From Macrostomum lignano (lineage: Eukaryota): a stretch of DNA of 64,000 nt. Position 1 is the first letter of the stretch, and each line of letters begins with the position of its first letter. Shown piece after piece: positions 16,792-56,694 of the stretch. The stretch is from assembly GCA_002269645.1 (NCBI GenBank), contig NIVC01002351.1, forward strand, positions 117,790 through 181,789, read 5' to 3'. Both the position numbers and the translations under genes were made by a program. The notes under the pieces are model-generated. The model ran no database searches, had not been told where the DNA came from, and was given only the letters and a program-made list of their open reading frames with translations.

Positions 16792-19700
16792 CTAGGCAAC
16801 GGGAGCACCAGTTTTCCATCTTGACGCCTGCGTCGCCGCAGGCGGGGCGGTGGCCGCCAGTGGGAAGTAGGGGTAGCTGGGCGCCCACTGGCTGCTCGCG
16901 TTGAAGCTCCTGCCCTCGTCTTTGTCCATTTCCACTCGGCCAAACATGCACTCTGCGTAGCTGGGCGGCGCTGTATTGCAAGGCGGAGCAATTCCTGTTT
17001 TTTAATGGGATCTGAGCATTTCTACAATAGAATCTGAGCACTTCTACAATAAAATCTGAGCACTTCTACAATAGAATCTGAGCACTCTAAGTTGAATCTA
17101 AGCACTCTCATTAGCATCTGAGCACTCTCATTAAGATCTGAACACTCTCATTAGCATCTGAGCACTCTAATTAGCATCTAAGCACTCTCATTAGCATCTG
17201 AGCACTCTCAGTAGCATCTGAGCTCTCTCATTAGCATCTGAGCACTCTAATTAGCATCTGAGCACTCTCATTAGCATCTGAGCACTCTCCTTAGGATCTG
17301 AGCACTCTCATTAGCATCTGAGCACTTGCGTTAGGATCTGAGCACTCTCATTAGCATCTGAGCACTCTCATTAGCATCTGAGCACTCTCCTTAAGGATCT
17401 GAGCACTCTCAAGTTTATCTCTCATCTCAGACCGCATAACTTCAATAGCTTACGCGGAACAAACTGGCCACCAGGCTGCGGCTGCTGCTCGACGACGCCG
17501 TCACCCGACGGCGCCGTTGGCAGCGGCGGCGGCAGTGGCGACATTCCGAACGTCGACCAGAGCGGCACGCTGCCGATCAGCAGCTCGCAGCACTCCTTCT
17601 TCATCGACAGGCAGCAGCCACCGTCCGCATTCAGCTGGACACAGGATGAAAAAAAATGAATGTGTGGATGCACTTTGACTGGTATGGATGTACTTTCTGT
17701 GGCACTCATGCATTTTTAACGGTACTGGTGTACTTTTGTGGTACTAGTGTACTTTTAACGATCCTGATGTACACTTGGTACTGTACAATTGATTACTGGT
17801 ACTATAAAACTTATAACGCTACTGGTGTACTTATCATGAAATCGAGTACATTTCTAAATAGTACAGATACATGCACTTTTAATTTCTAATGTTAATGATA
17901 CACTTTCAAGATAAGCGCGGTCTGCAATCAGCTTTTATTCTTTCCTTTAGACTCATAGATCACTTGATAAAAAGGACTTGTTTCAAATAGTAATTTCAAC
18001 CTACTCGAAAGTAGTAGTGCACGCGTATATTGTTACAGCCTTCAATGTGCGAACTGGGCACGGGGTTGACCGGCAGAAGATGGTTGAGCTGCATCGACTG
18101 GCCCTGCTCAATGCCGGACAGGCTGACAGAGGAGGCCACGCGGGACGAAGTTTTGCGCTTGCTGGGCGTTATAAATATGCTTTGCTGCAATGGCGGGATG
18201 AAATGTAGGAACTTGGGTTAGTTAAGTGAAATTATGTCAGAAATCGATGCTAGTCCTGTACTCCACAAATCACTTGAACGTTACGGAATTCAAGGCAGTT
18301 TTTCTTTTTACAGGATAGAATAATCTGTGCTTGATTGTGCACAGGGTCAGGTGGTCTAACGCCCCCAACTGCCCCTGTCCTTCCCCCGCCCTCTGCAGGG
18401 CCCTGCTTGGACTCAACCGCAGGGACATCAGGGCGGTAACCATGGGCCCTCTTGGGTCCGCTACCTGAGGGCTACAGGGCGAGCGACAATCCACCTCCTG
18501 GACTCTCCAGAGGGGGGTCGGATCTCCCTGCGCGACACCGCAGCACCACCTACCTGTGGTTGCCAGGGGTTTGCGGAATTGGCGGTAACGCCTCTTTGGT
18601 ATATCCGGAACCTCCTGTAGCTATAGTCAAGGGCTTAACTTTTTACAAGCCTTGATGTGTTGGACTTCATAGATCCTCTACTAGATTGAGTAATCAGACA
18701 TTAGACAACAAACAAAGACTGAAGGATTAAAAGCCCTGGTCATCAGGTATCTGCTCTGTTCTGGATAATTGCTGAGCATCATAACCTCTCCACTGTACGA
18801 CATTCATTCTATCTCTGCAAATTTTGAAATTTTGGTTACAAAAAGGTGAAGGTGTAGACTGTAGGTTAAACAAGTTAGCCAGACCTGATAAATCTCAAGG
18901 TTGACATTCTCCAGGTTGGTTTTGCTGGTATTGCAGATCTCACCGGTGATGTGCACCTGTTCTCCTGGCACGTAGCCCTTCTTAGGCAGGGCTACGCTGA
19001 CCCGAACTTTGCCACAGCAACAATTGAAGCAATAGCAGCACTTGACGTCAAAATCTTCCTCAGATTTAAACGGTCCAACCTCGTCGGGTAGGCGAATGTT
19101 CAAGTCGAAGTCGCGAATAACGGTGAACATTTTTTTAGTGTAGTTGTCAAACTTCCACGGCCGATCAATGTTAGCCTTGATCTCATAGCGAATTCGACCG
19201 ATTCCGCCTTCGAATGACGATGGCGCGGTCGGCGGCAGTTGAAACGTCACCGGGTAGATGTACTCCCCAGCTGGGTGGTGCTCCGCCGAGGGGCCCGCAG
19301 TCTCGGGAGCTGTCAAGGCGGCGGGCACAACAAGGATGTGCAGCTGCGCGGATGACTAATAGCCTAATAGATGCTGCAGTTATTGACACTAGCAAGTGCA
19401 ACACTGAATCACAACCGTTGCATCCTATTAATAACTTCAACTATTGTTTCTACTATACTAACCACATAAATATAAATATATAAATTAGATAATTAAACTC
19501 GCAACTATGGAGTATTTATGGCAACTCGAAATTTTTATCGTAATATTGTTTTTCACTCGAGTAGATATAGCCTGATTAAGCTTTATATATAAAAACTTTT
19601 CTATAGTAACCATTTTTATTCATAATTTGTCTTTTGAACCTTAAAAGAAAAAATTTGAAGCCTCTTTTGATTTTTTGGTACATGTAGTTTACAACATTTT

Positions 19701-20913
19701 GCGCTCTTTTATGACAAATCTGATCTTCCCAAAGAAGAATAATTGAATAATGTAAATTTGCTTGCTGCAAATATAGACTTGAACATAATCCCCTTGAATT
19801 TCCAATACGGAAGTTACATACAAGCAAAATTTGACAATTCAAACAGATCTCACTGTAAATAGCCACTTTCTGATCGATGTAAACTTCCTCAGATCTGTAG
19901 TGCACAGTCTCTGTTCGGCGGTTGTTGCCAGATCCGGTTGACCTGCTCTCGGTCCAGTGTACATAGGAATGGCCGAATAGCTTAACGTATATCGCTGGAA
20001 AAGACAAGCGTTGGGTGTGATTGCTAAATTCGCTAAGCTAACTTGATTTTAGATGGCGGTCCAATCAGTTCCGGATACTTGTAAAGTCAATTTCAGGTAT
20101 GAAATAATTTGAAAATGTTCGCTTTCCAAAACACAATAGTGTAATACAATCATTGCATCGGGAAGATTTATTAGAAAGATTATAATTATAATAATTGATT
20201 ACACCCAAACCCAATTGGCCAGACGTACAATCGACAGCTCAGCTGCAGCTATTGCGCAGCGCATCTGAAGGCTGCGTACGGCTGTTCAGTTCAAAGACTG
20301 GGGGGTCGCCACACACCTCAATTACCCCAGCTAATGCTGGTGCCCATTTTACAGCTGAATGAACTGAAGCAATACAGAGTTAAGTGTCTTGCTTAAGGAC
20401 ACAAACTGTTCCAGTGGGATCAGGAATTGAACCCCCCGACCTTCAAGTCGTGAGTCTGACGCTCTAACCACTAGGCTACAACCCCTACTAGAAGGATTGT
20501 ACACTGATCGATCACTGATCCTCACAACTGCGAAAGAAGCAAGCATGTTTCTTTTGCGTAAAGTTGATTCAAAAGTTTTCGATATAAAATTAGTAATTAT
20601 TTTGGTTAATCAGTACAGACATTTCGTGTATAGTAGTAAAAAAGGAAAATACGAGTATTCTATCGCCCCTATTAAATTTGTAAGCTTGTAAGTGCAACAG
20701 CCTTCTATGTTTGTTTTTAAATATTAAAAGCATGTAAAAATGAAATGTTTTATAATTTATTGTAGCTTGAAACAGTGTGTACCAACCTCTGCACTTGACA
20801 GGCTCGGTCAGTCTCAGGTGAACCTGGAATGCGATGGTCTGACCGGAGCGGTACACAGCCTGTGGATTCACCTCGGCATCGTCGAATACAATGTCGAATA
20901 TTTCCACTTTCAT
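16792..20913 (-). CDS. ARRDC: Alpha-arrestin (arrestin domain-containing protein), 6 exons, ~410 aa
   Basis: Hand-assembled exons 20913-20787, 19994-19854, 19309-18885, 18184-18005, 17634-17454 and 16970-16792; all GT-AG with consistent phases (1,1,0,0,1). Arrestin-N motifs ([38 protein letters not shown]), arrestin-C motifs ([24 protein letters not shown]) and a C-tail with PTAP and PPSY. Confidence 0.9.
17020..17410. repeat. 20-bp minisatellite (AGCACTCTCATTAGCATCTG)n in ARRDC intron 5
   Basis: About 19 units; same family as 48910-49580 in reverse orientation. Confidence 0.92.
18340..18640 (+). mobile_element. Degraded non-LTR retrotransposon 3'-end fragment in ARRDC intron 3
   Basis: 18455-18575 is clearly homologous to the reverse complement of 58510-58625. 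It translates in pieces as [16 protein letters not shown] and [10 protein letters not shown], resembling the C-terminus of ORF2 in I/R1-group LINEs. Confidence 0.5.
20190..20485 (-). mobile_element. tRNA-derived CORE-SINE, full-length copy in ARRDC intron 1
   Basis: tRNA-like head (A box TAGCCTAGTGGTTAGAGC, B box GGTTCAATTCC), then GTGTCCTTAAGCAAGACACTTAACTCTG...CTGTAAAATGGG (MIR/CORE-like domain), a shared 3' body and an AT-rich tail. Confidence 0.8.
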
Positions 20914-22920
20914 TATAGCGATTGTAGTTTGGCGAGAGCTGGAAATTTCAGGCAAGGTGAATCAATATGCTGCAGTCCCACGGGTGTGCTAGGGAAAGGC
21001 GGGAGTGTGTCGGGTGGCCTATGCTCATGAAATATTGGCCTAAGCGCTGCAGATATATCGAGGGGTGGACGGTTTTCAAAGTGGGACTGCAAACATCCAA
21101 CTTGCGGTTCCGCTCTCTCTCTTTCTAACCCCTTTGAACTAGCTTTGGATGCCTCTTTCTCACTGACCAATCAACCGTTTGCATTCATGGTTTCTAAGGT
21201 TTTATCCTTGAGCTGCTGGGCAGACTTTTCCCTTGATCGAACGGTTTTTTGAGAATAAGACTGAAAAATTTCCGGCAAAACAACCAGGGAGGACTGGGTG
21301 CAGCTGCTAGCGGTTCATAAAAGCGGAAGATTTGAGAGCTTCCCTACTCCAAAACTCTACCCTGGCTGAGCTAAATTATACCGTATAAGACTACTGTCGG
21401 GCGCATCCAGGCACTAAACAGTTCAGTTCTTAGTTCGGGCTTCTAGAATGCCCCAAACTCAAACACAAAACGAGGGGATAGAAAAAATGCCGACTTCCTC
21501 ATTCGCCCTCTTGCTCCCCTTCCCACGGAGTCGAATTTTCATTCACCCCTATCCCCAACTCTCCTTGATTTGCATTTCTCTGGTCTCTCGTGCCCCATAT
21601 AACTGATTGGCACGGGTGGTCAAAAACCACCCGGATCAAAGATTGGACCACCGCGGTGCAGCCCCCAAGCCATGGAGTTCTCATAAATTATCGGAAGAGA
21701 TCGTCTAGTCTAGGCTCACTCCTAACCAGATTCTAGCTCTGAAACTCCATAAACGAAGCTTCCGTTACTAATTCTCTTACAGAGGAGAGAAAGGGAGGCA
21801 GACAGAAACGCGCAGTAGAGAAGGAATCTACAGCCAGAGAAATGCGAGAGCATCTAGATGCATGCCAATTTCTCGCGCAGGGGAGAAAATATTACTCAGT
21901 TCTGCGTGGAAATTTTTTGTACAAGAAAAATATGGTTCCCCGTCTTTTTGGCTGCTCGGCTGCTATGGCTGCCCGCGGCAATGCAAAAGAATATTGAAGA
22001 GTAGTTCAGAGAGTGTAAAAGAGAGAGAGAGACACTGGGTGAACGCACAGCGCTATTAAAGCAAAGTCAGCCGTCTAAGCGCACCCCATGTTAGCCTGTA
22101 CAGACAGTCAATGCATTGCAAACAGTTAAAGTCGAATTAATCGTACGCGCCTGCAACACATGCAGACAAAGCGAAAGGCGGAGCCGCAGAAGTGTACCAA
22201 ATGCACCCTGACTTGAACTATTACTTCCAGGCAACCCAGACAGCCAACAGAATAAATCATTGGTACACAATTTCAACCATCAATTTTGTTATATTTCACC
22301 AACCGCAGCTACTGAGAGTAATGTAAGTAGAGGCAAAAGCAGAAAACTCGTCATTGATAATGTTTCTCAGAATTTAAATAAATATTACGTATTCACAGCT
22401 GGAATAATTGGAATTTAAGAACCTGCCGCAACTGCTTTACCTTCAACTGCTTCGGGTGAAAAGCACTAAAAAACATAATGAAAATTTTGTTAATAAAAAT
22501 AACAATCCAAATCAAAAAGCCACAATAACGGATCTTTGGTTAGTAAGAAACGCAGTTTCACCTTGAAACCGTGCAGTTAAGGACACATTGTATAAACGAT
22601 AGTACTGTATACAGATTGTACAAACAATTCCAACAAGATTAAGCCATAAAAACGATGAAAACTCAATCGATCTGTATAAGAGAGACGAGCTGAATATAAA
22701 AAGTATAATGCTTGAATAAAACATCACCACTAAACGACAATACCGAAAAATACCCAAAAAGCTACCTTCCACATAGAAATGGTGCCTATCTGAGTATTCG
22801 GGAATAACTGCAGAAGAAAAAAACCACATACTCGTAAACTTAGTGAAGTCTCAGTAATTCAAAGACAGACTCATAAAGACATTAATCATCCAGGGTGGTA
22901 GCAGGATACAAATTGCGACC

Positions 22921-24741
22921 TTATTGTCCACCAGGATATGGTGCACCACCTTGCTGTGCAACCGGATATGGTCCACCACCTGGTTGTGCACCAGGATATG
23001 GTGCACCACCTGACTGTGCACCAGGATATGGGGCAGAACCAGACTGCATGCCAGGGTAAGAAGTATCGCCAAAAAAGCCACCCGAAATTCCGGCACCACC
23101 AGCGGCTGACGGAGCGTCGTTGCGAACTCGAGGCGGACCAGCTCGAATTCCGCGACGCCTCATCCACTCGCACACCTGATTCGGAAGCTCCGCCAGTACC
23201 TCCTTTGCCAAGGCATACCTGCTGCGATCAATGTTGCCACCCTGAATGAAGCGACGCAAAGGAACGAATTGGACGACATCTCTTTCGGCGATCATCGACC
23301 CGCAGCGAAGTCGCTTGTCGTCTGAGTCCAGATCCTTCATAGCCGAGAAGTCCTCGTTTCCGACACCAACTATGATTATAGACATCGGTAGAGATGACGC
23401 CTTGATGATTGCCTGCTTCGTCTTCTCGAAGTCCGTGATGATTCCGTCAGTGATGATCAGCAGTACAAAGTACTGAGCTCCTGTCTGGTGAGCCGCAGCC
23501 ATTGACGCTACGTGGTTGATCACGGGCGAAAAGTTTGTCGGGCCGTACAGTCGCACCGCTCTGATGCAAGACCGATAGGCCGCGAGAAGACCTGGCATTC
23601 CTGCGCAGTACGGGTTTTCGGGCTGCAGAGTCAGCGAGAACGCATCCTGAACTCCCGAGAACATTGGAGGCAACAGAGCTCCGAAGCCCAGTCCGGGAAA
23701 CTGCTTGTCTGAGTCGTAGTCCTGCACGATCTCTCCTACCGAAATTATCGCCAGCTCGTACTGGTTCGGTCGGCCGTCGGCGCTCACGTGGTGCAGCGAG
23801 TGAGGGTCTCTGGGGTCTCCATTGCTACCCGTGAAGTCGATTGCAACCGTGAAGTGCAGCTCAGTGCCGCCCTGAATGTAGTCGACGAACGAGTCGATGG
23901 TCTCGATTCCGATCTGGCTGAACACGATGGTTCCAGCCGACTTTTTCTTCTTGCTGATGAGGGTTCGTTGGGCGGAGCGGCTTTGGGCGACCTCCTGCTC
24001 CAAGCTCTCCAGGCTGCTGTAAAAGCTTCCTATCAGATCATGAGAGCCGTCTCCGTCATAATCATAGCAATCAAATCGTAGGATTAAACGCTTATTACCA
24101 CGACAGATTCGAGCGACTGGTACAGAAAACATTGCCCATCGTGGGTTCAAGTTATTCTTGATAACCTCCGTTCGATGCACAAGAGACCAATTGCGAACGT
24201 GGTTTAACTCGTCTTCGCTTGTTACATCTTCAAGTGGTTGATAGATTTCAAGAAATGGATCTGATTTGCCAAGAAAGTCTTTTTTATCAAGTTTGTGCCC
24301 TTCAATTTGAAAGTTAACAACTTGCTTGCACTCTTGAACTTCTACACAGGTTACAGTAATGATGGACGTCTTCGAACTTTTTGTCCTGCAAAGTTTAGTT
24401 TCGAATCGACGTCGGCTTACAAGCTCGCCGATCGAAGTCTCCAACTCGCCGAGAAAGTCGTGTTCAGACAGTCGAGCACTCGGACTGTCCAAGTCGTAAA
24501 TTTGAAACTTCACCAGCTGACGCTCCTCGAACATGAAGTCGACAATGAACCGATGGCTGAATTCGGGATCAAGCGTGTTGTTCAGTCTCTCAGTTCTGCC
24601 GATTTCTTGAAAATTGGAAGTTCCCGGCTGGCGCAGGAACAGGACGCACTGAGGATCTGACTTGGAGGTGACGTCGCGGTCAGGCAGATTTCTGCAGGAC
24701 ACGCTGATCTCAACGCGACTGGTTAGGCTTGGGCCGGACAT
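22921..24741 (-). CDS. CPNE: Copine paralog 1 (C2A-C2B-vWA, Gly/Pro/Tyr-rich tail), intronless CDS, 606 aa
   Basis: SRVEISVSCRNLPDRDVTSKSDP, LDKKDFLGKSDP, vWA motifs FTVAIDFTGSNG, QYFVLLIITDG, LPMSIIIVGVG, RDVVQFVP. The ATG at 24741 follows a CAG splice-acceptor-like site. Confidence 0.95.
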   Translation of the reverse strand: MSGPSLTSRVEISVSCRNLPDRDVTSKSDPQCVLFLRQPGTSNFQEIGRTERLNNTLDPEFSHRFIVDFMFEERQLVKFQIYDLDSPSARLSEHDFLGELETSIGELVSRRRFETKLCRTKSSKTSIITVTCVEVQECKQVVNFQIEGHKLDKKDFLGKSDPFLEIYQPLEDVTSEDELNHVRNWSLVHRTEVIKNNLNPRWAMFSVPVARICRGNKRLILRFDCYDYDGDGSHDLIGSFYSSLESLEQEVAQSRSAQRTLISKKKKSAGTIVFSQIGIETIDSFVDYIQGGTELHFTVAIDFTGSNGDPRDPHSLHHVSADGRPNQYELAIISVGEIVQDYDSDKQFPGLGFGALLPPMFSGVQDAFSLTLQPENPYCAGMPGLLAAYRSCIRAVRLYGPTNFSPVINHVASMAAAHQTGAQYFVLLIITDGIITDFEKTKQAIIKASSLPMSIIIVGVGNEDFSAMKDLDSDDKRLRCGSMIAERDVVQFVPLRRFIQGGNIDRSRYALAKEVLAELPNQVCEWMRRRGIRAGPPRVRNDAPSAAGGAGISGGFFGDTSYPGMQSGSAPYPGAQSGGAPYPGAQPGGGPYPVAQQGGAPYPGGQ

Positions 24742-26194
24742 CTGTAATTTTTTGCACAAATTTTCTATCGCTTAAGTGTTGAAAAATTGTAGGAATATCT
24801 CAACTTAAGCCATACTGACTGACAATTAGGCTAGTTCTGTCGGCTGTAAACTTAAGTATTGCGTTGGATATAGCATTGAGACACAGTCGGGGCTTATATT
24901 ATATATTAAAAAAATTGAACCTTAAAATACAGAAGAAACAAACCTTTATTTTGCAACCAATTTACCGCCAAAACATTAAGCTAAATATAGAACCATGGCG
25001 GACGCACCAAGTTTAATCTAGTAAAAGCAAGGTAGAAATAAAAATTGCTTGCTTCATTTACGCAACTAAGTAGGTCATTGCTTCACTTTCGTCGCTTTGC
25101 GAAAAGAGTTAGTCATCTTTTCAGCAAAGCTTGCTACAGGCAAGAGAGAGACACTTAAGCGCCTGTTCAATAACCAAACACACGTAGCACTGAAGCAAAC
25201 TCGTAACAATATAATGCTTTCGTATACGTGATGCTTGCATACTACGAATTTCTAGCGACTGCCAAAACCACAAAATATCTTTACTGTCTTGTTGTGTGGG
25301 TTAGTATGCCAGAACCTTGTGCAAACATTCAGTGTAGCTATTTCAACTCGATTTGTAAGGCCACATTCGAATACACGCTGAGCATTCAAGTGTATGCTTA
25401 TCGAGAAAATCTAAAAATAGCCTGCTTCTCAAACTTAATAAGATATGGTAGCTACATTTAGATTCAATGTACGCTCGTGCAGTATATTCATCGCCATATA
25501 CTAAATTTAGTATACAATTAATATATTCTGAAACTCTGAATAGCTTCCAGAAGGTCGTCTAGCGTAATCACTTATTCATAGTTTCAGTTAAAATAAATTG
25601 ACTAAAAAGCAATGTTTTTCGCCAGGAAAACCTCTGGGAGCTATACGTATATTATTCACAACTAGCGTAAACTGGCAAAACTTCACGGATCGCAGGACAG
25701 TAACAAAAAACAAATAATTATAAAGGAATAAAGACGGATTGCTTTTTTAACGCTGAATAAACACAACTGGAACCTCCATCGGACATTGTATGGATGTGTA
25801 TGGATCCTAAAAATATGTGTATGGATAGGCTTGTACATATCCTTTATAGCTTACTTTTCGTTAATGTAAGCAATGGTGGTATGAGTAGAACCGAGAGCTT
25901 CGAACCGGATTGAAACATAGAGAGAAATATATGGCCGGGAAATTGCGTTGTAGGCAAAGTTCTGCGTGTTGACGTAACTACTGATTGCTTCTCTTAGAGA
26001 GAAATCACCTGATTGGTTACTATACAGTGAAAAATCGATTAAATATGTGTATTAATATGATACAAAAGCTCTGATTTAGTAAATACCTGGAGGATGAAGT
26101 ATTGTATACGTCATTCCAAACTATTGTAGTAGTGTCAGTGAATGGAGCACACACGGCACAGAGGGAGGCGTGGGCACAGAATATTACATACGAG

Positions 26195-26864
26195 CAAAGA
26201 GTATTGAGGTCGCCTAGTAGAGTGCCAATAAGGATGAAAATCTGAAGCCGACTTTTAGAATCCACCCACCCCCTCCGGTCACCAAGCTTTTTAGTCTATG
26301 GCACAAGTTATGGCTAGAATGGTGCACAAAGCCGATGCTCAGAAATATAAGACATTTTACACTTAGAAAATGCATGTATCAAATAAGCAAGACAACATCG
26401 CTCAGTCACCAGACTCAGTTGCCGTCGTCGATACACAACTCCGTAACAGCCATGCCATATAGCCTTATCACTTATGCCTTTTGCTTTTCCCACTGCTGCA
26501 CCTTCACTCTGCTTGTTTATCACTTTGTTTTTTGTCTTTCCAACTCAGCTGCAAGAATCCTGCTCAACTTCTTTTCTCCTTACACAATGCAATCATCGTA
26601 CGTACGGTTACAGTATAGATACAGAAATAAAGTCTTGAGGACGTCTTAAGCATACATGGTATTCGTCCAGCTACTAGCTACTTGTATTTTTCTCATGCAC
26701 TCTATGTAAATTTCTGAGCATCGGCTTTGTACGCCATTCTAGCCACAACTTGTGCCATAGACTAAAAAGCTTGGTGACCGGAGGGGGTGGGTGGATTCTA
26801 AAAATCGGCTTCAGATTTTCATCCTTATTGGCACTCTATACTAGGCGACCTCAAATACTCTTTG
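26195..26864. mobile_element. Non-autonomous DNA transposon with ~160-bp TIRs (hAT/P-type 8-bp TSD)
   Basis: 26195-26355 is the near-perfect reverse complement of 26705-26864; termini CAAAGAG...CTCTTTG; perfect TSD CATACGAG (26187-26194, 26865-26872). Confidence 0.9.
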
Positions 26865-28610
26865 CATACGAGTAATTCTGTGTAAATTCCTTGGATGTGG
26901 GGAAGAAGCCCTCGCTATCTACCATAAACTAAGTTTCACTGCAACAGGCTAAATAAAAACGTTTCTGTAGTCTATGGCCGTGCCTAAGCGGGGAATGAAC
27001 TTTATTTAGCGTGTCTTGGTATGATATTAGCAAGGCTGCAAAAAAGTAAAAAACTGGACTCAAAATGAGAAGCAAACAACAGCATAAAAACAAAACAATT
27101 TTTGGTTGCAGAAAAAAATATAAAATTGTCGATAAAAATTCTGCAAGAACAATACACATTAGATTAAAAATGTGCTGCAAAATTTAAGAAATCATCACTT
27201 TTCGACAATAGCAATGTAATTATTCATATTTAATTTGTTGTACAACATAGCTAGCTGTACCGAAATATTAAATTCAACACATAGACACTTAATATTATAG
27301 ATATAAATATTTAGCTCAAGACACTAAGCGTAGGAAAGAAGCGATCCTTAGTTTAAAACACAGTTTAGAGCTAATTATAAAATTGATAATAGAAACGCCG
27401 ATACGGAAGCCAACAAAAGCAGTAAAACATAATTAAAATGATCTACTGGATTTGAAAATTGCTCTATAGGAAACACTTTTTACGATTATACTTGAATAGT
27501 GACTGGTTACAAGCAATTTAAGCACTAAAATATTACATGATTAATTCAATAATTAGAATTTTTATCGTCAATATTGCTTTGGTCGATTAAGAGCTCATTC
27601 ACACCGCCATTAAACAACGCCAAGTTTCATGTAATTACAAAATTTGTACATTGTACATTAACTCCTTCTCAACATCAGTCGTGGAGTGCCGGCCATAAAA
27701 CAGCGATGCTATCTACGAGCTAGTGCACGAGTGCTCAAGAGTCAGCGAAATGGGCCTTACAGTCTGTAGACACGAAATCACCGAAGGCGTTGCATTAGAG
27801 AGCCCACGATCCCTTTATTACAGTGAATGACTGTAAACGCTTCATTTATGACAATATGATGACGGTGTGAAAAAATTAAGGTGACAAGAAATCACTGTTT
27901 TAATAAATAAAGTACTAATGTTTAGCTATTGGTCATCATTGATTAAAACTCAAAATTCTTGATGCAGTGCTGCATAACTGCAATTTTTTATCGGTATAAA
28001 GTGGACAGGAACATCCAACCTGAACATAAACAAATGTACAATAACATCGATTCAAGGAGCACTGGGAGGCACACCCAGATACGGAGGTACTGAAGCCTGG
28101 GCGCCGCCAGAAGCGGCAGGATAGGCCGGCGGTGGTGCAGTCGGAGCCGCAGCTCCAGGAGCATAGACTGGACCTGCAGGATAGCCAGGCTGAGGGGCGC
28201 CAGGATATCCTGGACCCGATTGAGGCACACCGGGATACGGAGCACCAGGATATTGAGCTCCTCCTGGTTGAGTGCCAGGGTACGGAGCGCTTCCAGGAAT
28301 TCCGGCACCACCAGCAACTAACGGAGCGTCGTTGCGAACTCGAGGCGGACCAGCTCGAATTCCGCGACGCCTCATCCACTCGCACACCTGATTCGGAAGC
28401 TCCGCCAGTACCTCCTTCGCCAAGGCATACCTGCTGCGATCAATGCTGCCACCCTGAATGAAACGACGCAAAGGAACGAATTGGACGACATCTCTTTCGG
28501 CGATCATCGACCCGCAGCGAAGTCGTTTGTCGTCGGAGTCGAGCTCCTCCATCGCAGAGAAGTCCTCGTCTCCGACACCAACTATGATTATGGACATCGG
28601 TAGAGATGAC

Positions 28611-31600
28611 TGTGAAAACTCCACTTCGGGGGTAAGACCCCCCCCCAAAGGCAGAGAGCTTGTATTTAATATAGCTGGCCAACAATAAAGGTTGTCTGAC
28701 AAAGCGTAAGCCAATCACACGCGCGCGTGCAGGTGTACACCTGCACTGTACATTACACTGAGCGGAGCAACTAACTGAGCAGACCCACGCTACCACATCC
28801 CTCCCCATCTACATGGGGATCAGGGATCGCAAGAGAATACATTAGCGCAACACGTTATAGTGTGAGGAACAAAAACTCAATACATAACTTAATAATAAAT
28901 AATAATTAACCAGTACCAAAACTACGAAAACGCCAGATAGGAAAGCAACGACACAACAGAATAAGGAAAATAAACCATAACCATAACAAAGTTCAAAATC
29001 CAAATTTAAACGTCCGAACACTACAGTCAATCAAAATAGTCTCTTTCACAGATGACGTCACCCGTAGCTCAGGCGCTCCGGGGGACGTCGAACTCGCGAC
29101 GATCGGCGCAGAGACCCGTCGATCTCAGGGTCTCCAGGAGCAGCCAGGTTTGGCGGCTCGTCTACGGCCGGCATCGCAGCTTCCGGCTCAGGTGCGGCCT
29201 TGGCGTCGGTAGCACCGTCTGTCACGCCAGCTCCTGTAGGCCGCGGCTGCTCAGGACCACCGCGGACATGGTCAACGTGCCGCCGCACCACTCGGTCGTC
29301 GCCATCGAAGCCGCACAGGTAGGAGGCCGGACCGGCGGCACCGACAACTCGCGCCGGCTTCCACCGACCTCCGTTGGCTCCAAAGTCTCTGGCCAGTACA
29401 GCGTCTCCAGTCTCGAAGGTCCGGAACCGAGCTTTGCAGTCGTGGTGCTCTTTTTGCTGACCTTGCTTACGCTGTACTCTTGCTCCCAGGTCTGGCCGAG
29501 CTCGATCTAGCAACGTGCACAGTCGCCGTCCCATCAGGAGTTCGCAGGGAGCCACACCAGTTGTCGCATGCGGAGTGACCCGGTAGCTCAGCAGGAACCG
29601 GGCGACCTTATCCTCCAAGGAGCCTTCGCGCTGCTTCTCCAGGGACCGCTTCAGCGTCTGGACAGCTCGTTCCGCCAGGCCGTTGGACGCCGGATGGTAG
29701 GGAGCAACGCGCACGTGCTGAATGCCGTTCTTCCGCAGAAAGTCGGACATCTCCTCGCTGACCAAGTTGGGCCCATTGTCCGACACCAGCACATCTGGCA
29801 ACCCGTGCGTCGCGAAGCTGGAGCGGAGTTTCTGGATGGTCACAGCTGAGGTCGCTGACGTCACCACATGCACATCCAGCCACTTTGAATGGGCATCGAC
29901 GACGACCAGCAGCATCTTGCCAGACACCGGACCCGCATAGTCGATATGCACTCGAGACCACGGTCGGTCAGGCCACGGCCACGACAACATTGGCGAAGGC
30001 GCCGGGGCGTTCTGCAACTCCTGACAGTCAGAGCAGGCCTTGGCCAGGTTTTCAATCTCCGAGTCTAATCCTAGCCACCAGAAATAACCTCGGGCTAGCG
30101 TCTTCATGCGTGACGCCCCCGCATGACCTTGATGCAGCACCTGGAGCAGTGCAGCTCGCGCTCCGACCGGGACCACCACTCGAGCGCCCCACAGGAGGCA
30201 GCCGTCTTGCACACTGAGCTCAGCCGCTCTCTTGGAGTATGGCAGCAGATCGTCACTGACCCGCTCTGGCCAGCCGATTTGCGTGAAGTGCAGAGCTCGG
30301 GCTAGTGTGGGGTCCCTTCGAGTCAGGCCGCGTATCTGAGCTGCCGTGACAGGTCCATCGTCCAGGTGGTCCATCAGCATGACCAGCTCTGCCAGCTTCG
30401 GGACCGTCGCCGGCTTGTCGGGCAGCGGCAGGCGACTCAGGGCATCGGCGCACAGCAGTGAGGCTCCGGCTCGGTGAACCATGCGGTAGTTATAGCCAGA
30501 CAGCAGCAGAGCCCACCTCTGAATTCTTCCAGATGCCAGGGCCGGCACGGCCTTGTTCTCAGCAAGCAATCCAAGCAGAGGTTTGTGGTCACTCACCAGC
30601 AGAAATGGGCGGCCGAACAGGTACGCGTTGAACTTCTTGACCGCAAACACTACCGCGAGGGCTTCCTTCTCGAGCTGCGAGTAGTTTTTCTCAGCGTCGT
30701 GCAACGTACGCGAGGCAAAGGCCACAGGCCGGACAGCTCCATCGATCCTGTGGCTGATGACCGCGCCCAGACCGTAGGGGGACGCGTCGCACTCGAGCAG
30801 CAGGTCTTCGCTCGGGTCAAAGTGCGCCAAAACCGGAGCCGAAGACAGCAGGGCCTTGCACTTCTCGAAAGCGGCGTTCTGAGCAGCGCCCCAGTTCCAG
30901 CGGTGTTGCTCGCGCAGCAGCAGGTGCAGCGGTGCCAGGACTTGAGACAAATTAGGCAGGAACTTGCCATAGTAGTTCACCATGCCTAGGAAGCTGCGCA
31001 GCTGAGTTGCGTCCTTGGGAGCTGGAGCGCTGACAATCGCCTCGACCTTGTCTTTGATCGGGTGCAGGCCGTCGGCATCGATGCGGTGACCGAGATAACT
31101 GACGCTCGTCTGCATGAACTGGCACTTCTCCAGTTTGCACCGGAGGCCGCTCTGGCTCAGCTTCTCCAGAACCTGCTCCAGGGAGTTCAGATGACTGCTG
31201 TCGTCCTTTCCGGTGATGATGAGGTCATCGATGAAGCAGGCGGTGCTGGTGATTCCTTGCAGCAAGCAGTCCATCCGGCGCTGGAAAATCCCGACCGCTG
31301 GCGAGACACCGAAGGGCAGCCGCGTGTACCGAAGCAGCCCTTTGTGCGTATTGATCGTGCAGACTTCCTGGGAGGCCTCATCGAGTGGTAGCTGCATGTA
31401 CGCCTGCGACAAGTCGAGCTTAGTGAAGAGCCGCCCACCAGTCAGCTTCGCGAACAGCTCTTCGATCCGCGGCAGAGGATACGAGTCGGGCTCCACGTTC
31501 GGGTTGACGGTCTGCTTGAAGTCGGCGCAGACCCTCACAGAGCCGTCGGACTTGAGCACTGGCACCACCGGCGATGCGTACTCGGAGTGCTGCACGGGCA

Positions 31601-31887
31601 CCAGGATTCCTTGTTCGATCTCGCGGTTCAGTTGGCTCTCCACCTTGTCCTTCAAAGCGAATGGGAGATTCCTGGCCTTCATAAAGCGGGGTTGAGCATC
31701 GGGTTTCATATTCAAACTCACTGGCGGTCCGTTGTACTTTCCTAGCTCAGGCGAAAAAACATCGCTGTACTTGTCGAGCAGCTGCTGCAGTCTGGGCGAC
31801 ACCCCTGGAGCAGCCGCCACAGCCACTGTGGGCACTGTGAGCAGCCACTGAGCGGAGCAACTAACTGAGCAGACCCACGCTACCACA
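28611..31887 (-). mobile_element. Ty3/Gypsy LTR retrotransposon, internally deleted (no gag/protease, truncated 5' LTR)
   Basis: TG...CA termini; 5-bp TSD ATGAC (28606-28610, 31888-31892); complete 187-bp 3' LTR at 28611-28797; PPT AGATGGGGAGGGA at 28798-28810; only 42 bp of 5' LTR remain (31846-31887, identical to 28756-28797). Confidence 0.95.
29058..31845 (-). CDS. pol: Gypsy pol (RT-RNase H-integrase), open frame but no ATG start or upstream gag/PR
   Basis: RT: YPLPRIEELF, KLDLSQAYMQ, RLPFG, FIDD. RNase H: CDASPYGLGAV, DHKPL. Integrase: H-x3-H...C-x2-C, HIDYAGP, SDNGP, SNGLAERAV. RT-RH-IN order is the Gypsy order. Confidence 0.93.
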
Positions 31888-34757
31888 ATGACGCCTTGAT
31901 GATTGCCTGCTTCGTCTTCTCGAAGTCCGTGATGATTCCGTCAGTGATGATCAGCAGTACAAAGTACTGAGCTCCTGTCTGGTGAGCCGCAGCCATTGAC
32001 GCTACGTGGTTGATCACGGGCGAAAAGTTTGTCGGGCCGTACAGTCGCACCGCTCTGATGCAAGACCGATAGGCCGCGAGAAGACCTGGCATTCCTGCGC
32101 AGTACGGGTTTTCGGGCTGCAGAGTCAGCGAGAACGCATCCTGAACTCCCGAGAACATTGGAGGCAACAGAGCTCCGAAGCCCAGTCCGGGAAACTGCTT
32201 GTCTGAGTCGTAGTCCTGCACAATCTCTCCTACCGAAATTATCGCCAGCTCGTACTGGTTCGGTCGGCCGTCGGCGCTCACGTGGTGCAGCGAGCGAGGG
32301 TCTCTGGGGTCTCCGTTGCTGCCCGTGAAGTCGATTGCAACCGTGAAGTGCAGCTCAGTGCCGCCCTGAATGTAGTCGACGAACGAGTCGATGGTCTCGA
32401 TTCCGATCTGGCTGAACACGATGGTTCCAGCCGACTTTTTCTTCTTGTTGATGAGGGTTCGTTGGGCGGAGCGGCTCCGGGCCACCTCCTGCTCCAAGCT
32501 CTCCAGACTGCTGTAAAAGCTGCCGATAAAATCGTGCGACCCGTCGCTGTCGTAGTCGTGGCAGTCGAAGCGAAGTAGCAGCTGCCTGTTTCCGCGGCAC
32601 AAACGGTTCAGTGGAACCAAAAATTTGGCCCATCGCGGGTTCAAATTGTTCTTGATTACTTCGGTACGATGTACAAGTGTCCAATGTCGGACTTTATTGA
32701 CTTCATTTTCACTCGTAATTTCCTCCATTGGCTGATAAATTTCAAGGTAAGGATCGGATTTTCCAAGAAAGTCTTTTTTGTCAAGCTTTTTTCCTTCGGC
32801 AATGAAACTGACTATTTGTTTGCACTCTTGAAGCTCGAAACACGTGATTATAATTGTGGACTTCTTGTGTCCAGTTTTGGACAAAGTAGTTTCGAATCGA
32901 CGTCGGCTTACAAGCTCGCCGATCGAAGTCTCTAACTCGCCGAGAAAGTCGTGTTCAGACAGTCGAGCACTCGGACTGTCCAAGTCGTAAATTTGAAACT
33001 TCACCAGCTGACGCTCCTCGAACATGAAGTCGACAATGAACCGATGGCTGAATTCGGGATCAAGCGTGTTGTTCAGCTTTTCAGTTCTGCCGATTTCTTG
33101 AAAATTAGAAGTTCCCGGCTGGCGCAGGAACAGGACGCACTGGGGATCTGACTTGGAGGTGACGTCGCGGTCAGGCAGATTTCTGCAGGACACGCTGATC
33201 TCAACGCGACTGGTGAGGCTTGGGCCGGACATCTGGAACAAGTTAGTACCGATTAAACTCGATTCGGTTTAATACAGATTACCGCCCGTGTAATCAGTGT
33301 AGCTTTACTTTACTTGCATAGAAAAATGTCACCCTCATAATGCTACAATCGATGAGCAAAGTAAACATCCTGCCCTAAAATAGGTTTGCTGTTATCGTAC
33401 TTTACTCGTTCAGGATCTGAAGAATAAGATTATATGCCTATGCAAGAGGCCATTGGCAATGAACTAATCTTAGTAATTACGACCTAGTTCTAGATTAGGC
33501 ATGCAAACTTGGCTGGAGTTACTATTTTAGAAAGATTAACTGGAATGTTGTCAAGAAGCAGTAAATGATTTATTAACTAATAATTTTATCGTACTTTTGC
33601 ACAATTCCATAAGGAACAATTTAAATATTTGGAAAATCAGCACTTTTTGAATAAGCGAGATTTTTTTAGGCCTTGATCAAGTAATATAACGAAGCAAAAA
33701 TATAATGAATATACAATTTCAGCATTTAGCTTGACGGCAATGTCGGAATAGCAGACGTACCGGTAGGTATTCAAAACCAGTAAATATTAATTTCGTGGAT
33801 ACATGATTTAAAAACATACAATTGCGGCGAAATTGGATTGGCAAATAGTAGCAGTATAAATAGAGTGGGAAAAGTATTTTAATTAAAGTACAAAACAGTT
33901 CACGTCTTATCCGTCGGATGCATTAATCTTTTCTTGTGGAAAGCAAAAGCAGAATAACTATTTAGTAACAAGAATTATATTTTCATAACTACTGACGAGC
34001 AGCACTTTAAATTACGATTTCCAATAGCATTCTATGGAAAAATTAATAATTTCGATAATATTTTTATGTAAACTCGTAGTCACTGCTTGCTACGTAAGGA
34101 AAAATGATCTTTCTAACCCGTCAGACAGAAAATTAGGCTTTTTTATTGCCTATACTCAATACAAATTAAAGCCAGCTTAGATCATTAACAGCTAGCAGAA
34201 ACTCTGCCGATTACAATAGAAAACCAATTTGAATCTTTTTTAGGCATCTCAACTTTATGACAATTTGGTTAGAATGCATTCGAGTTGCTGATACTGGTAT
34301 AGAATTTCTATTCTTTTCAGTGTGGCCATATGTGACGACGTCGTTAGCATCTTAAATTTTTAGTTTCTATGTGAGTTTTTATTACTTAAAATTATTATAG
34401 TTGATTAATTTGCAGGTTCCCCAGCTATTAATTTAATGTAATTTATTTAGAAAAAATGTACTTAAGTTTTATTTATTTAAGTCCAAGTTATTACTACTTT
34501 TTTGATAGATATCTTAGGTTTAAATGAATCGGATTTCCCCGCCAATTTAAATTGTTGCCTCGCGCTCGTTTTGTACTCTCCTCAACTCGGCATTTTGTCT
34601 CGTACCATGCGTGTCAACACTACTAATAATTGAACTAGCTAACCAATAAATAAATACTAATAAATAATTAACAAATAATTAATTAATCGCTGACTACATC
34701 TCGAACTCGCTACGTCACACATAGATAAGTGAAACGAGCGGGGAATAATGTATCGGT

Positions 34758-34880
34758 ATTTATTCCCCACTACTCAGGCCTGGCCATAGACTATAGGAAT
34801 GTATTCCTTCGGCCTGGCGCAATAAAACTCCAATAAATATGTTTCTATAGTCTATGGCCGGGCCCAAGTGGGAAATAATA
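34758..34880. repeat. Short palindromic (MITE-like) repeat
   Basis: GGCCATAGACTATAG...CTATAGTCTATGGCC inverted repeat with outer TATTCCCCAC/GTGGGAAATA arms; the right half recurs at 26961-27000. Confidence 0.6.
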
Positions 34881-35352
34881 AATATTATAAGCTAGTATAT
34901 GCTACTTAAACGCACTATAGTTTTATTCAGAGGAAAAAACTGTCTATGGTTTAAGTGAGGGCTTCACCCTCACACCAAATACTGGCCCCACACCGACTGT
35001 CGCAATGGCAGTGTGACTTAGGCATAAATGTCTATGACACCATATTAATAGGATAGCCATAGCAACTCTTGACTCCAAAACAAAATGATAAAAAAATGAA
35101 AAAGCCATTAAAAGCTACAAATTCAATGCACATGGGTAGGCTGGATGATAAATAAGAGCATTAAAACAATACTGAAAAATCAACGCATCGAATTCCTTTA
35201 AACGAAATAAATTAAAGAGTAATTACAACAGCAGACGTATTGTTTTTTTAAATGAGGAGATTACAAGACAATTCAAGACAAATAGAGCTAGCCATCAATG
35301 TTTTATATCAAATTTATACAGCAGACAGCAAGACTCGCAAAAAATCGTCTGT

Positions 35353-37491
35353 TTAAGGAGCACTGGGCTGCGTCCCTCCGGCTACAGAGTAATTTTGAGC
35401 CAAGTGGCCATAGCCGGCTTGACGAGAGCTCACTTGAATACCGGGGTAATTTGCGGCGCCATACTGGCCTGGACCAGTAGGATATCCTCCAACATTTTGA
35501 TAAGCACCAGGATACCCTGCGCCACCAGTAGGAGCACCAGGATACCCTGCGCCACCCGTAGGGGCACCAGGATACCCTGCGCCACCCGTAGGGGCACCAG
35601 GATACCCTGCGCCACCCGCAGGGGCACCAGGATACCCTGCGCCACCCGTAGGGGCACCAGGATACCCTGCGCCACCCGCAGGGGCACCAGGATACCCTGC
35701 GCGACCCGCAGGGGCACCAGGATACCCTGCGCCACCCGCAGGGGCACCAGGATACACTGCGCCACCCGTAGGGACACCAGGATAAGAAGGAGCTGAAGCA
35801 GGAGAGCCATCAGTACCTGGTGCGGCAGTAAATGAGGATGGGGCAACAGGGCCTGACGCTGGAACATTTGAATCAGATCGCACTTTAGGCGGACCAGCTC
35901 GAATTCCGCGACGCCTCATCCACTCGCACACCTGATTCGGAAGCTCCGCCAGTACCTCCTTCGCCAAGGCATACCTGCTGCGATCAATGCTGCCACCCTG
36001 AATGAAGCGACGCAAAGGAACGAACTGAACAATGTCTCTCTCAGCGATCATCGAACCGCAGCGAAGTCGTTTGTCGTCGGAGTCGAGCTCCTCCATCGCA
36101 GAGAAGTCCTCGTCTCCGACACCAACTATGATTATGGACATCGGTAGAGATGACGCCTTGATGATTGCCTGCTTCGTCTTCTCGAAGTCCGTGATGATTC
36201 CGTCAGTGATGATCAGCAGTACAAAGTACTGAGCTCCTGTCTGGTGAGCCGCAGCCATTGACGCTACGTGGTTGATCACGGGCGAAAAGTTTGTCGGGCC
36301 GTACAGTCGCACCGCTCTGATGCAAGACCGATAGGCCGCGAGAAGACCTGGCATTCCTGCGCAGTACGGGTTTTCGGGCTGCAGAGTCAGCGAGAACGCA
36401 TCCTGAACTCCCGAGAACATTGGAGGCAACAGAGCTCCGAAGCCCAGTCCGGGAAACTGCTTGTCTGAGTCGTAGTCCTGCACAATCTCTCCTACCGAAA
36501 TTATCGCCAGCTCGTACTGGTTCGGTCGGCCGTCGGCGCTCACGTGGTGCAGCGAGCGAGGGTCTCTGGGGTCTCCGTTGCTGCCCGTGAAGTCGATTGC
36601 AACCGTGAAGTGCAGCTCAGTGCCGCCCTGAATGAAGTCGACGAACGAGTCGATGGTCTCGATTCCGATCTGGCTGAACACGATGGTTCCAGCCGACTTT
36701 TTCTTCTTGCTGATGAGGGTTCGTTGGGCGGAGCGGCTCCGGGCCACCTCCTGCTCCAAGCTCTCCAGGCTGCTGTAAAAGCTGCCGATAAAATCGTGCG
36801 ACCCGTCGCTGTCGTAGTCGTGGCAGTCGAAGCGAAGTAGCAGCTGCCTGTTTCCGCGGCACAAACGGTTCAGTGGAATCGAGAATGGAGCCCATTTTGG
36901 GTTTAAATTCTTTTTAATGAATTCGGTTCTGTGCACCAAGACCCAACTGCGAACTCTGGGTACTTCTGATTCAGTTTGTATTTCATCCATCGGCTGATAA
37001 ATCTCCAGAAAAGGGTCAGACTTGCCAAAGAAGTCTTTCTTGTCAAGTTTGACGCCTTCGACGCGAAAATTGGCAATTAGTTTGCACTCCTGAAGCTCCA
37101 AGCAGGTCAGTATAATGAGAGATTTTTTTGTACTGCCAGTCTTGGTCAAAGCCGCCTCGTACTGTCGCCGACTGACAAGTTCACCAACAGTGGTCTCAAG
37201 TTCGCCTAAAAAGTCATGGTCCTGCAGGGCTGCGCGCGAGCTGTCAACATCGTAGAGCCGAAAAATGACTACCTGTCTTTCCTCGAAGCAGAAGTCTACT
37301 TGAAACTTGTGATTGAATTGCGGGTTTAGGGTGTTCTGTATGCATTCAGTGCGACCAAATTCATGCGTTGATGTTGGCGTTTTCATGAACAGGACACACA
37401 TTGGATCAGATTTGGACATGACATCACGATCTGGCAAGTTCTTGCAAGAGACAATGATCTCCACCCTGCTAGTGAGCTGAGGAGCTGCCAT
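35353..37491 (-). CDS. CPNE: Copine paralog 3 (C2A-C2B-vWA, YPGAPxGGAG decapeptide repeat tail ending PSAP), intronless CDS, 712 aa
   Basis: Same copine motifs as paralog 1; a 30-bp coding repeat at ~35500-35790. Confidence 0.95.
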   Translation of the reverse strand: MAAPQLTSRVEIIVSCKNLPDRDVMSKSDPMCVLFMKTPTSTHEFGRTECIQNTLNPQFNHKFQVDFCFEERQVVIFRLYDVDSSRAALQDHDFLGELETTVGELVSRRQYEAALTKTGSTKKSLIILTCLELQECKLIANFRVEGVKLDKKDFFGKSDPFLEIYQPMDEIQTESEVPRVRSWVLVHRTEFIKKNLNPKWAPFSIPLNRLCRGNRQLLLRFDCHDYDSDGSHDFIGSFYSSLESLEQEVARSRSAQRTLISKKKKSAGTIVFSQIGIETIDSFVDFIQGGTELHFTVAIDFTGSNGDPRDPRSLHHVSADGRPNQYELAIISVGEIVQDYDSDKQFPGLGFGALLPPMFSGVQDAFSLTLQPENPYCAGMPGLLAAYRSCIRAVRLYGPTNFSPVINHVASMAAAHQTGAQYFVLLIITDGIITDFEKTKQAIIKASSLPMSIIIVGVGDEDFSAMEELDSDDKRLRCGSMIAERDIVQFVPLRRFIQGGSIDRSRYALAKEVLAELPNQVCEWMRRRGIRAGPPKVRSDSNVPASGPVAPSSFTAAPGTDGSPASAPSYPGVPTGGAVYPGAPAGGAGYPGAPAGRAGYPGAPAGGAGYPGAPTGGAGYPGAPAGGAGYPGAPTGGAGYPGAPTGGAGYPGAPTGGAGYPGAYQNVGGYPTGPGQYGAANYPGIQVSSRQAGYGHLAQNYSVAGGTQPSAP

Positions 37492-45978: not shown

Positions 45979-55938
<9,960 letters not shown>

Positions 55939-56694
55939 CTTCCAAGGTGTTGTTTTAAACAAATGGAAACTGTTGTGACTAAAATTTGTCAAGAATTATA
56001 AACATTTTCTGCATTGATGTCTAACTTCGAACTTGGCTCGAAAGTATTTAGGACCAAGTTCATCAAAATAATTTGACTACTATAAATATGACGCGATCTG
56101 TTGTGAACAAAGAAATGCAGTCTAGGTATTATGGTTAGGTAAGCTAAGGGACTCCAGGATCTTTAGGAAAAAAGCTACATGTATGTAAACGCGGACTATA
56201 TATAAGAGCTATTAGAAAATGTGATAAAATAGTCAAATAAAACACTTCTCACCTCTGCAGCCATATTTAATATAGAGACAGAGAAAAATTATAGCTAGAA
56301 AAAACACACAGCCGCTGGCCCAGCCACTCTGTCAAATTTATCTTTCAAAATGGCGCCATAAATGTGTCCTCGCGTACATAACGAAGATCGTTATAAGCAC
56401 TGAATAAAGCCGGAATTTCTATCGCTCAAAAAGTTTTCTATCCAGACTTAATTTTCATTTATTCGTCTCGCATTTACACCCAAACTTGCATTTATGATTT
56501 TAAAGCTCTATTTACAGCTCCATTTATATTTACAGCTTTAAAAGATAATAAAATATATACACAAATAATAAAATGTGGAAATTTGAAATTTGAGCATGAA
56601 CAAGACATTGTGTCAGATATGCGACTCGTATGTTATTGCTTAGTCAGAAAAAAATTGAACTGAACTATTCTGATACAAAAATAAATAAGGCACG

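Follow-up and report, generated by a model that had tools for sequence, protein, structure and literature searches.

P(S/T)AP and PPxY motifs in copine tails of Macrostomum lignano and across the copine family: candidate docking sites for TSG101 and Nedd4

The question raised by this locus is whether the short proline-rich motifs found in the tails of its copines are docking sites for host ESCRT and Nedd4 proteins or words that arose by chance in low-complexity sequence. The window analysed here, a stretch of 64,000 nt from the flatworm Macrostomum lignano, presents on its minus strand, head to tail, copine 3, copine 2 (interrupted), copine 1 and a six-exon alpha-arrestin (Table 1). The original prediction had been that the tails of copines 2 and 3 carry virus-like late domains of the P(S/T)AP and PPxY classes, and that the neighbouring alpha-arrestin carries both classes as well.

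The copine locus and the interrupted copine 2

To begin with, the domain content of the three copines was established. Two C2 domains and the Copine domain of Pfam were found above the cut-off in copines 1 and 3 and in the intact form of copine 2. The architecture is C2A-C2B-vWA, and residues 6-529 of the core align to Arabidopsis BON1 (6KXK) with an E-value of 1e-92. Moreover, the aspartates of loops 1 and 3 are present in both C2A and C2B of all three copines, and most of the C2 loop aspartates are nearly invariant in an alignment of 60 rows. These aspartates are the calcium ligands of the C2 domains. The window copines are ordinary C2A-C2B-vWA copines, for which calcium-dependent binding to phospholipid membranes would be expected from family membership. 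The same build is shared by the whole family (CPNE1-9, Arabidopsis BON1 and nematode NRA-1); copines 2 and 3 differ in their long tails of Pro, Gly and Tyr, which carry P(S/T)AP in both and PPxY in copine 2. Furthermore, the best match of the copine 3 core was the M. lignano protein P0004 (86% identity), which was identified by sequence comparison as the uninterrupted form of copine 2.

In the window, copine 2 is split by a 3.3-kb LTR insertion that had gone unnoticed in the original prediction. The insert has TG...CA ends, a 3′ LTR (28611-28797) preceded by a purine tract and a 42-bp remnant of the 5′ LTR (31846-31887), and it is flanked by a 5-bp target duplication (28606-28610 and 31888-31892). 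It holds the domains RT-RNaseH-integrase in this order and lacks most of the 5′ LTR, gag and protease. By its domain order and its ends, it is a Ty3/Gypsy-type LTR retrotransposon. The copine 2 frame of the window enters a stop inside the element after residue 450; with the insertion and a stop at residue 451, the tail is therefore encoded only by the uninterrupted allele. Contigs from the X2 and X9 runs (two of four examined) span the empty site with the 5-bp duplication collapsed, and run X1 had loose ends matching it. The sequence of the X9 contig agrees with copine 2 in 28343-28605, a part that differs at 12 sites in copine 1 and at 9 in copine 3. Moreover, further genomic copies of the element are indicated by loose ends with other flanks. 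Copine 2 as it stands in the window is probably a disrupted copy or allele, the intact allele encoding the full tail.

Removal of the insert as an intron was considered and rejected, the nine in-frame GT/GC-AG pairs near its ends all having donors that were weak by eye. The only joint seen across the insertion was the exact empty site. The occupied junction was bridged by none of the contigs listed, an absence that carries no weight (331 pieces lay outside this list).

Table 1. Positions of the copine and alpha-arrestin genes, their tail motifs and the inserted element in the window.
Feature	Position	Strand	Basis or remark
Copine 3, 712 aa, intronless coding sequence	35353..37491	(-)	ORF and Pfam
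Copine 3 terminal PSAP	35356-35367	(-)	Directly before the stop
Splice acceptor of copine 2; likely spliced-leader trans-splice site	33233..33239	(-)	Directly before the copine 2 ATG
Copine 2, 5′ part: C2A, C2B, most of vWA	31888..33232	(-)	One substitution relative to P0004
Internally deleted LTR retrotransposon, 3277 bp	28611..31887	(-)	Interrupts the vWA-coding part of copine 2
Copine 2, 3′ part: vWA end and 96-aa Pro/Gly/Ala/Tyr tail	28052..28610	(-)	Equals the last 185 aa of P0004
Copine 2 PTAP	28133-28144	(-)	Residues 603-606 of the intact protein
Copine 2 PPAY	28121-28132	(-)	Residues 607-610 of the intact protein
Copine 2 terminal PSAP	28055-28066	(-)	Directly before the stop
Copine 1, 606 aa, 69-aa YPG tail	22921..24741	(-)	ORF and Pfam
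Alpha-arrestin (ARRDC), six exons, 418 aa	16792..20913	(-)	GT-AG boundaries and open frame
ARRDC exons	20787-20913, 19854-19994, 18885-19309, 18005-18184, 17454-17634, 16792-16994	(-)	Inferred, not from reads
ARRDC PTAP, residue 116	19221-19232	(-)	Inside the Arrestin_N match
ARRDC tail PTAP, residue 330	17509-17520	(-)	
ARRDC tail PPSY, residue 361	16957-16968	(-)	

Motifs in the tails of the window copines

The PTAP, PPAY and PSAP-stop of copine 2 and the PSAP-stop of copine 3 were all recovered in the translated sequence as had been predicted, and so were the long YPG-rich tails of both proteins. YP occurred 6 times in the copine 2 tail (2.2 expected) and 12 times in that of copine 3 (2.8 expected), which is 177 aa long with tandem repeats of the GYPGAP type. 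YP and YPG were strongly enriched in all three tails, including that of copine 1, in whose 69 residues neither P(S/T)AP nor PPxY was found. The tails consist of 58-66% P+G+A and are nearly uncharged, with no lysine in copine 2 and a single one in copine 3. Judged from this composition, the P(S/T)AP sites would lie in an exposed, low-complexity region.

The tails of copines 2 and 3 were shuffled 20,000 times each. A terminal P(S/T)AP appeared in 0.1% of the copine 2 shuffles and in 0.07% of those of copine 3, two P(S/T)AP motifs in 0.5% of the copine 2 shuffles, and P(S/T)AP abutting PPxY in 0.35% of them. Any P(S/T)AP was found in 12% of the copine 3 shuffles. One PPxY was found in 46% of the copine 2 shuffles, so the PPAY of copine 2 by itself lies within chance expectation.

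The arrangement of PTAP and PPAY in copine 2 had been likened to the late domain of Ebola virus VP40, which is an overlapping PTAP/PPEY (PMC8402826). Both proteins have the two motif classes within eight residues; however, the copine 2 motifs are not overlapping, as had been claimed, but abut at residues 603-606 and 607-610 with no proline in common, and the abutting layout was present in only 1 of 254 homologue tails. Copine 2 is a host gene for which no viral origin is indicated, and the term virus-like is left as a framing only, the motifs being host motifs which viruses also use. An origin of the motifs from a virus or a retroelement was rejected, since the tail lies outside the insert, is encoded by the host gene and is identical to that of the intact M. 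lignano protein. None of the 254 homologue tails ends exactly in P(S/T)AP, although 11 have the motif within five residues of the end.

Motifs of other ESCRT-linked classes were also searched. ALIX-type YPxL and ALG-2 type-2 motifs were absent from the window tails and at chance level across the family, and the strict ALG-2 type-1 motif (PPYP-x4-YP) was absent from every tail examined. With the relaxed type-1 definition, PYP/PxYP ... YP (PMC5037681), one weak site was found in copine 2, a result reached by 178 of 2000 shuffles.

As regards copine 1, its coding sequence stops after PYPGGQ, and the frame remains open for 12 further codons that include another YP (22883-22923, minus strand). The tail of copine 1 may therefore have been shortened recently.

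Divergence among the three copines

Between copines 2 and 3, 25 of 36 fourfold sites of C2A are different, compared with none of 100 in the vWA part. Moreover, the C2A of copine 3 is saturated against both copines 1 and 2, whereas the vWA-coding halves of all three copines are nearly identical, with 0-2 of about 100 fourfold sites differing (22921-37491). The identity at fourfold sites of vWA, set against the saturation of C2A, therefore suggests ongoing gene conversion confined to part of the copine genes.

The sole alignable DNA around the stops of copines 2 and 3 is a run of 16 nt at the PSAP-stop, which has been kept between two old paralogues with a saturated C2A. The two terminal PSAPs, whose codons are identical, are homologous and therefore count once. 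The shared PSAP-stop could also stem from a short conversion tract.

Motif frequency in the copine family

To keep the tails from influencing the ranking, only the folded core was used to search for homologues. The main set comprised 136 usable tails from the best 150 representatives at 50% identity. The window proteins and P0004 were left out before counting, as were P0006 and 12 representatives whose vWA end could not be aligned, and P0137 and P0264, in which the tail resembles a further domain or mis-joined sequence. Expected values were taken from 500 residue shuffles and 500 dipeptide shuffles of the same tails, and reordered motifs were counted as controls.

A total of 18 of the 136 tails had P(S/T)AP, compared with 3.8 ± 1.8 for residue shuffles and 8.8 ± 2.1 for dipeptide shuffles, and PPxY was present in 32 (12.5 and 18.7 expected, respectively). 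Neither count was reached by any of the 500 shuffles. In the 118 tails of the first search, P(S/T)AP appeared in 13 (2.2 and 6.7 expected; 0 of 500 shuffles) and PPxY in 10 (4.2 and 7.1 expected; 0 and 23 of 500 shuffles). A further 55 tails, mostly from molluscs, included 8 with P(S/T)AP (2.0 expected; 1 of 1000 shuffles) and 17 with PPxY (7.9 expected). For this last set, 45 rows already counted were dropped and 20 were set aside as copine-8 type; the pattern used for that filter included PPPY, so these 20 rows provide no independent count. Among the tails with a length of at least 20 aa, 39 of 79 carried P(S/T)AP or PPxY. In tails of at least 100 aa, PPxY was at chance level (8 found, 8.3 expected).

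Among the 12 orderings of its letters, P(S/T)AP was the most frequent (18), with 17 for the shifted reading [ST]APP and 0 for the PxxP control PA[ST]P, and the reordered controls were at or below chance. The second position of PxAP was occupied by S in 13 proteins and by T in 7, compared with G in 4, Q in 3, P in 3 and A in 2; by these counts, serine or threonine is selected at this position.

The comparison with shuffled tails was the one on which the original prediction had been staked, and it found the motifs in excess family-wide. Given this excess, the flat reordered controls and the selection for S/T, the reading of the motifs as ESCRT and Nedd4 ligands therefore survives it. The motif signature is family-wide and more frequent than chance, clearly for P(S/T)AP and less so for PPxY. 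The idea that the motifs are a peculiarity of these flatworm genes gives way to their recurrence across the family; no other flatworm species was among the named matches. In homologues, P(S/T)AP is enriched beyond its surroundings; it is recurrent, not conserved in position, and occurs in a minority of copines.

Position, phylogeny and breadth of the motifs

The copines carrying these motifs came from molluscs, annelids, a nemertean, echinoderms, a hemichordate, nematodes, an insect, trout, a choanoflagellate, a chytrid and a euglenid. The named carriers included Lottia, Lineus, Capitella, Dimorphilus, Mactra, Argonauta, Amphiura, Apostichopus and Ptychodera, together with NRA-1 of Ascaris, copine-3 of trout (PSAP) and those of the choanoflagellate, the chytrid and the euglenid. 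The Lottia copine has the same abutting layout as copine 2, in the form PSAP-PPAY. The tails do not align between lineages, and one paralogue group of molluscs has neither motif.

Furthermore, P(S/T)AP was found in 18 of 229 N-terminal extensions, where 1.4 were expected. In a FastTree phylogeny of 223 cores, the motif was C-terminal in 31 copines, N-terminal in 17 and at both ends in none. The C-terminal state requires at least 27 changes on the tree. The N-terminal state requires 5, which corresponds to about five events and not to 17 independent ones. The 17 copines with an N-terminal P(S/T)AP have C-tails of only 3-13 aa. Altogether, either motif was present in 74 of the 223 copines, the majority being without.

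Vertebrate copines had been said to lack such a tail in general. This stood for the long YPG tails, none of which appeared in the rows seen, but not for the motifs: PPPY was present in 118 of 120 copines of the copine-8/5 type (mostly from fishes; P(S/T)AP in none of the 120), and the trout copine-3 has its PSAP. The named copine-8 rows of mammals and birds also carry PPPY. The PPPY of vertebrate copine-8 lies a few residues after vWA, and its tail, unlike those of window copines 2 and 3, is 20 aa long and has neither P(S/T)AP nor YPG repeats. This short tail is well conserved as a whole, so PPPY does not stand sharply above its flanks.

Two further observations were made on homologue tails. 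The last residues of vertebrate copine-8, T-Q-I, are highly conserved and resemble a class I PDZ-binding end. In P0261, a copine tail with PPSY is followed by a C-terminal WW domain of its own (Pfam WW, E 1.8e-15).

Copines as candidate ESCRT and Nedd4 adaptors

The explanation that we favour, at slightly better than an even chance, is that the tail motifs are host docking sites for the TSG101 UEV domain and for Nedd4 WW domains on a calcium-triggered membrane adaptor. A rise in calcium would bring the copine to the membrane through its C2 domains, as expected from the family. P(S/T)AP would then bind the UEV domain of TSG101 (ESCRT-I), and PPxY the WW domains of the Nedd4 family, as predicted by their consensus. 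PSAP-UEV binding is weak and needs the avidity of oligomers (PMC13442042), which could be given by the local concentration of copines, perhaps aided by the YPG repeats. From the precedents of TFG, annexin A7 and galectin-3, clustering through these repeats may supply the avidity or a contact with ALG-2. Finally, the tail would recruit ESCRT-I and a Nedd4 ligase, and the membrane would be shed, sorted or repaired. Against the adaptor explanation stand the motif count of 74 in 223 copines, the lack of either motif in copine 1 and the chance level of PPxY in long tails.

Known systems show similar designs. The host PSAP adaptors of TSG101 (ARRDC1, galectin-3, TFG and HRS) have P(S/T)AP in a low-complexity region, as the copines do; TSG101 binding has been demonstrated for these adaptors, whereas the copines have a consensus match, and their membrane targeting would be by C2 domains. 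ARRDC1 buds microvesicles and recruits TSG101 through its PSAP (PMC9105457), and the PSAP of TFG recruits TSG101 and drives lysosome repair (PMC13442042). In the annexin A7/A11-ALG-2-ALIX system, a calcium-dependent lipid-binding core is joined to a Pro/Gly/Tyr-rich tail linked to ESCRT, which again resembles the copines. However, annexin A7 reaches ESCRT indirectly via ALG-2, while the copine tails have a direct ESCRT-I consensus and no strict ALG-2 type-1 motif.

Moreover, cells require CPNE1 and CPNE3 to repair toxin pores in the plasma membrane, and both proteins are shed in vesicles; their partners in repair are described as not yet identified (PMC9865450). In a review that counts copine-4 among the partners of ALG-2, bound by way of vWA, copines are suggested as possible upstream factors in ALG-2/ESCRT repair, the question being left open (PMC5037681). 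The literature also asks how ESCRT first reaches a wound, and a recurrent ESCRT-I/Nedd4 docking motif would offer a concrete mechanism for the role of copines in repair. With its familiar parts (copine core and standard motifs), this would extend known adaptor logic and would not be a new kind of system. No report of P(S/T)AP or PPxY motifs in copines was found in the full-text literature searched, in which few subscription journals are included. The terms 'CPNE' and 'copine' do not occur in the five supplementary text files of PMC8509885, and other interactome tables could still list contacts of copines with WW domains or TSG101. The motif signature is apparently previously undescribed on copines.

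A broader proposal, offered tentatively and with the balance against it, is that copines are a pan-eukaryotic, unrecognised class of calcium-switched ESCRT-I/Nedd4 adaptors. Their C2 domains would sense the calcium entering at a wound, their YPG repeats would cluster the protein, and their motifs would nucleate ESCRT directly, without ALG-2. These motifs would have arisen several times, at one terminus or the other, in lineages ranging from euglenids to vertebrates, with the PPPY of copine-8 among them.

Alternative explanations

The motifs might bind TSG101 and Nedd4 and yet serve to mark the copine itself for sorting or turnover. Once calcium has driven it to the membrane, the copine would be ubiquitinated and packed as cargo into intraluminal or shed vesicles, with no nucleation of repair. 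Galectin-3 is loaded into exosomes through one PSAP (PMC7563435) and copines are found in shed vesicles (PMC9865450), and the patchy distribution of the motifs would suit a regulatory add-on. However, with hardly any lysine in the tails of copines 2 and 3, ubiquitination would have to take place on the core or on a partner, and a calcium-switched membrane module combined with PSAP mirrors the proteins that act as recruiters. This alternative is considered unlikely.

In another explanation, which is quite improbable, the functional element would be the YP/YPG-repeat tail itself, which would either be read by penta-EF-hand proteins of the ALG-2 type or form condensates like those of annexin A7/A11; the [ST]AP and PPxY-like words would be read by another partner or be passengers. 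The enrichment of YP/YPG in the motif-less copine 1 as well as in copines 2 and 3 fits this idea, as do the type-1-like ALG-2 motifs of the family (8 of 136 tails, 1.9 expected) and the A[ST]AP and GSAP variants, which are common in its tails. In annexin A7, moreover, it is the N-terminal region that brings in ESCRT-III by means of ALG-2 (PMC6491720). On the other hand, the strict type-1 motif is missing from the tails examined, the single type-1-like site of copine 2 is weak, and PSAP is also found in short N-terminal extensions that have no YP repeats. A function of the YP repeats is compatible with the adaptor explanation, the two not being mutually exclusive.

The neighbouring gene bears on a third alternative. 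It has Arrestin_N and Arrestin_C of Pfam and a PPxY tail, and the PTAP and PPSY that had been predicted for it are both in that tail. A further PTAP, at residue 116, was rejected as a free motif for lying within the Arrestin_N domain. By its domains and tail, the neighbour is an ordinary alpha-arrestin with an ARRDC1-like PTAP. The copines and the arrestin had been proposed as a clustered module, for which adjacency is what the locus shows: the stop-to-start gaps are 2120, 3310 and 2007 nt, and these 2.0-3.3 kb, taken raw with no repeat adjustment, exceed the published cut-off for trans-spliced operons of M. lignano, defined by repeat-adjusted gaps <1 kb (PMC8629364).

A co-transcribed, trans-spliced operon that comprises the three copines with the alpha-arrestin and encodes one ESCRT-recruiting module is held to be highly unlikely. 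It would agree with the head-to-tail order of all four genes on one strand, with acceptor-like sequences before all four starts and with a spliced-leader join at the copine 1/2 start, where a contig of run X2 has a 22-nt loose end equal to the published M. lignano spliced leader; copine 1 shares its first 17 coding bases with copine 2, so the leader read is assignable to either. Another M. lignano copine, apparently fused to a VPS25-like segment in a merged gene model, points the same way. Against it, besides the gaps, 30% of M. lignano genes are trans-spliced in any case, and PPxY tails are usual for alpha-arrestins. As for the merged gene model (P0279), the tail of a copine paralogue ending in ASAPPPYY runs into a segment that looks like VPS25 (ESCRT-II), after which the record is named, and this suggests that the copine and VPS25 genes are neighbours.

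Lastly, that the motifs are chance words of Pro/Ala-rich low-complexity tails is very improbable and largely refuted at the family level: single motifs do arise often in shuffled tails of copines 2 and 3 and the tails do not align between lineages, but the family counts were reached by none of 500 shuffles under two shuffle models, the reordered controls stayed at or below chance, S/T is selectively used, the N-terminal extensions are enriched as well, and PSAP has been retained at the stop of two saturated paralogues.

Other features of the window

On the minus strand, an ORF resembling a neuropeptide precursor (61079-61546) has a signal-peptide-like start and six near-identical repeats of the AWHAGSRLG type with KK/KKR flanks; it had no Pfam match. 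Exons of a P-type ATPase (45979-55995, minus strand), recognised from their translation, presumably belong to a gene like that of the Na+/K+-ATPase alpha subunit. In addition, a weak tRNA-like match (31.9 bits), possibly the head of a SINE, was found in intron 1 of the arrestin (20415-20485, minus strand), beyond which the search of Rfam over 15-45 kb gave nothing. In the interval separating copine 2 from copine 1, two inverted arms with 95% identity (26194-26349 and 26707-26865) and a spacing of about 360 nt are MITE-like. Finally, long minisatellite arrays were observed from 11086 onward and at 15180-16510, 17069-17393, 48908-49565 and 51563-53025; the 17-kb and 49-kb arrays are related to each other and lie in opposite orientation.
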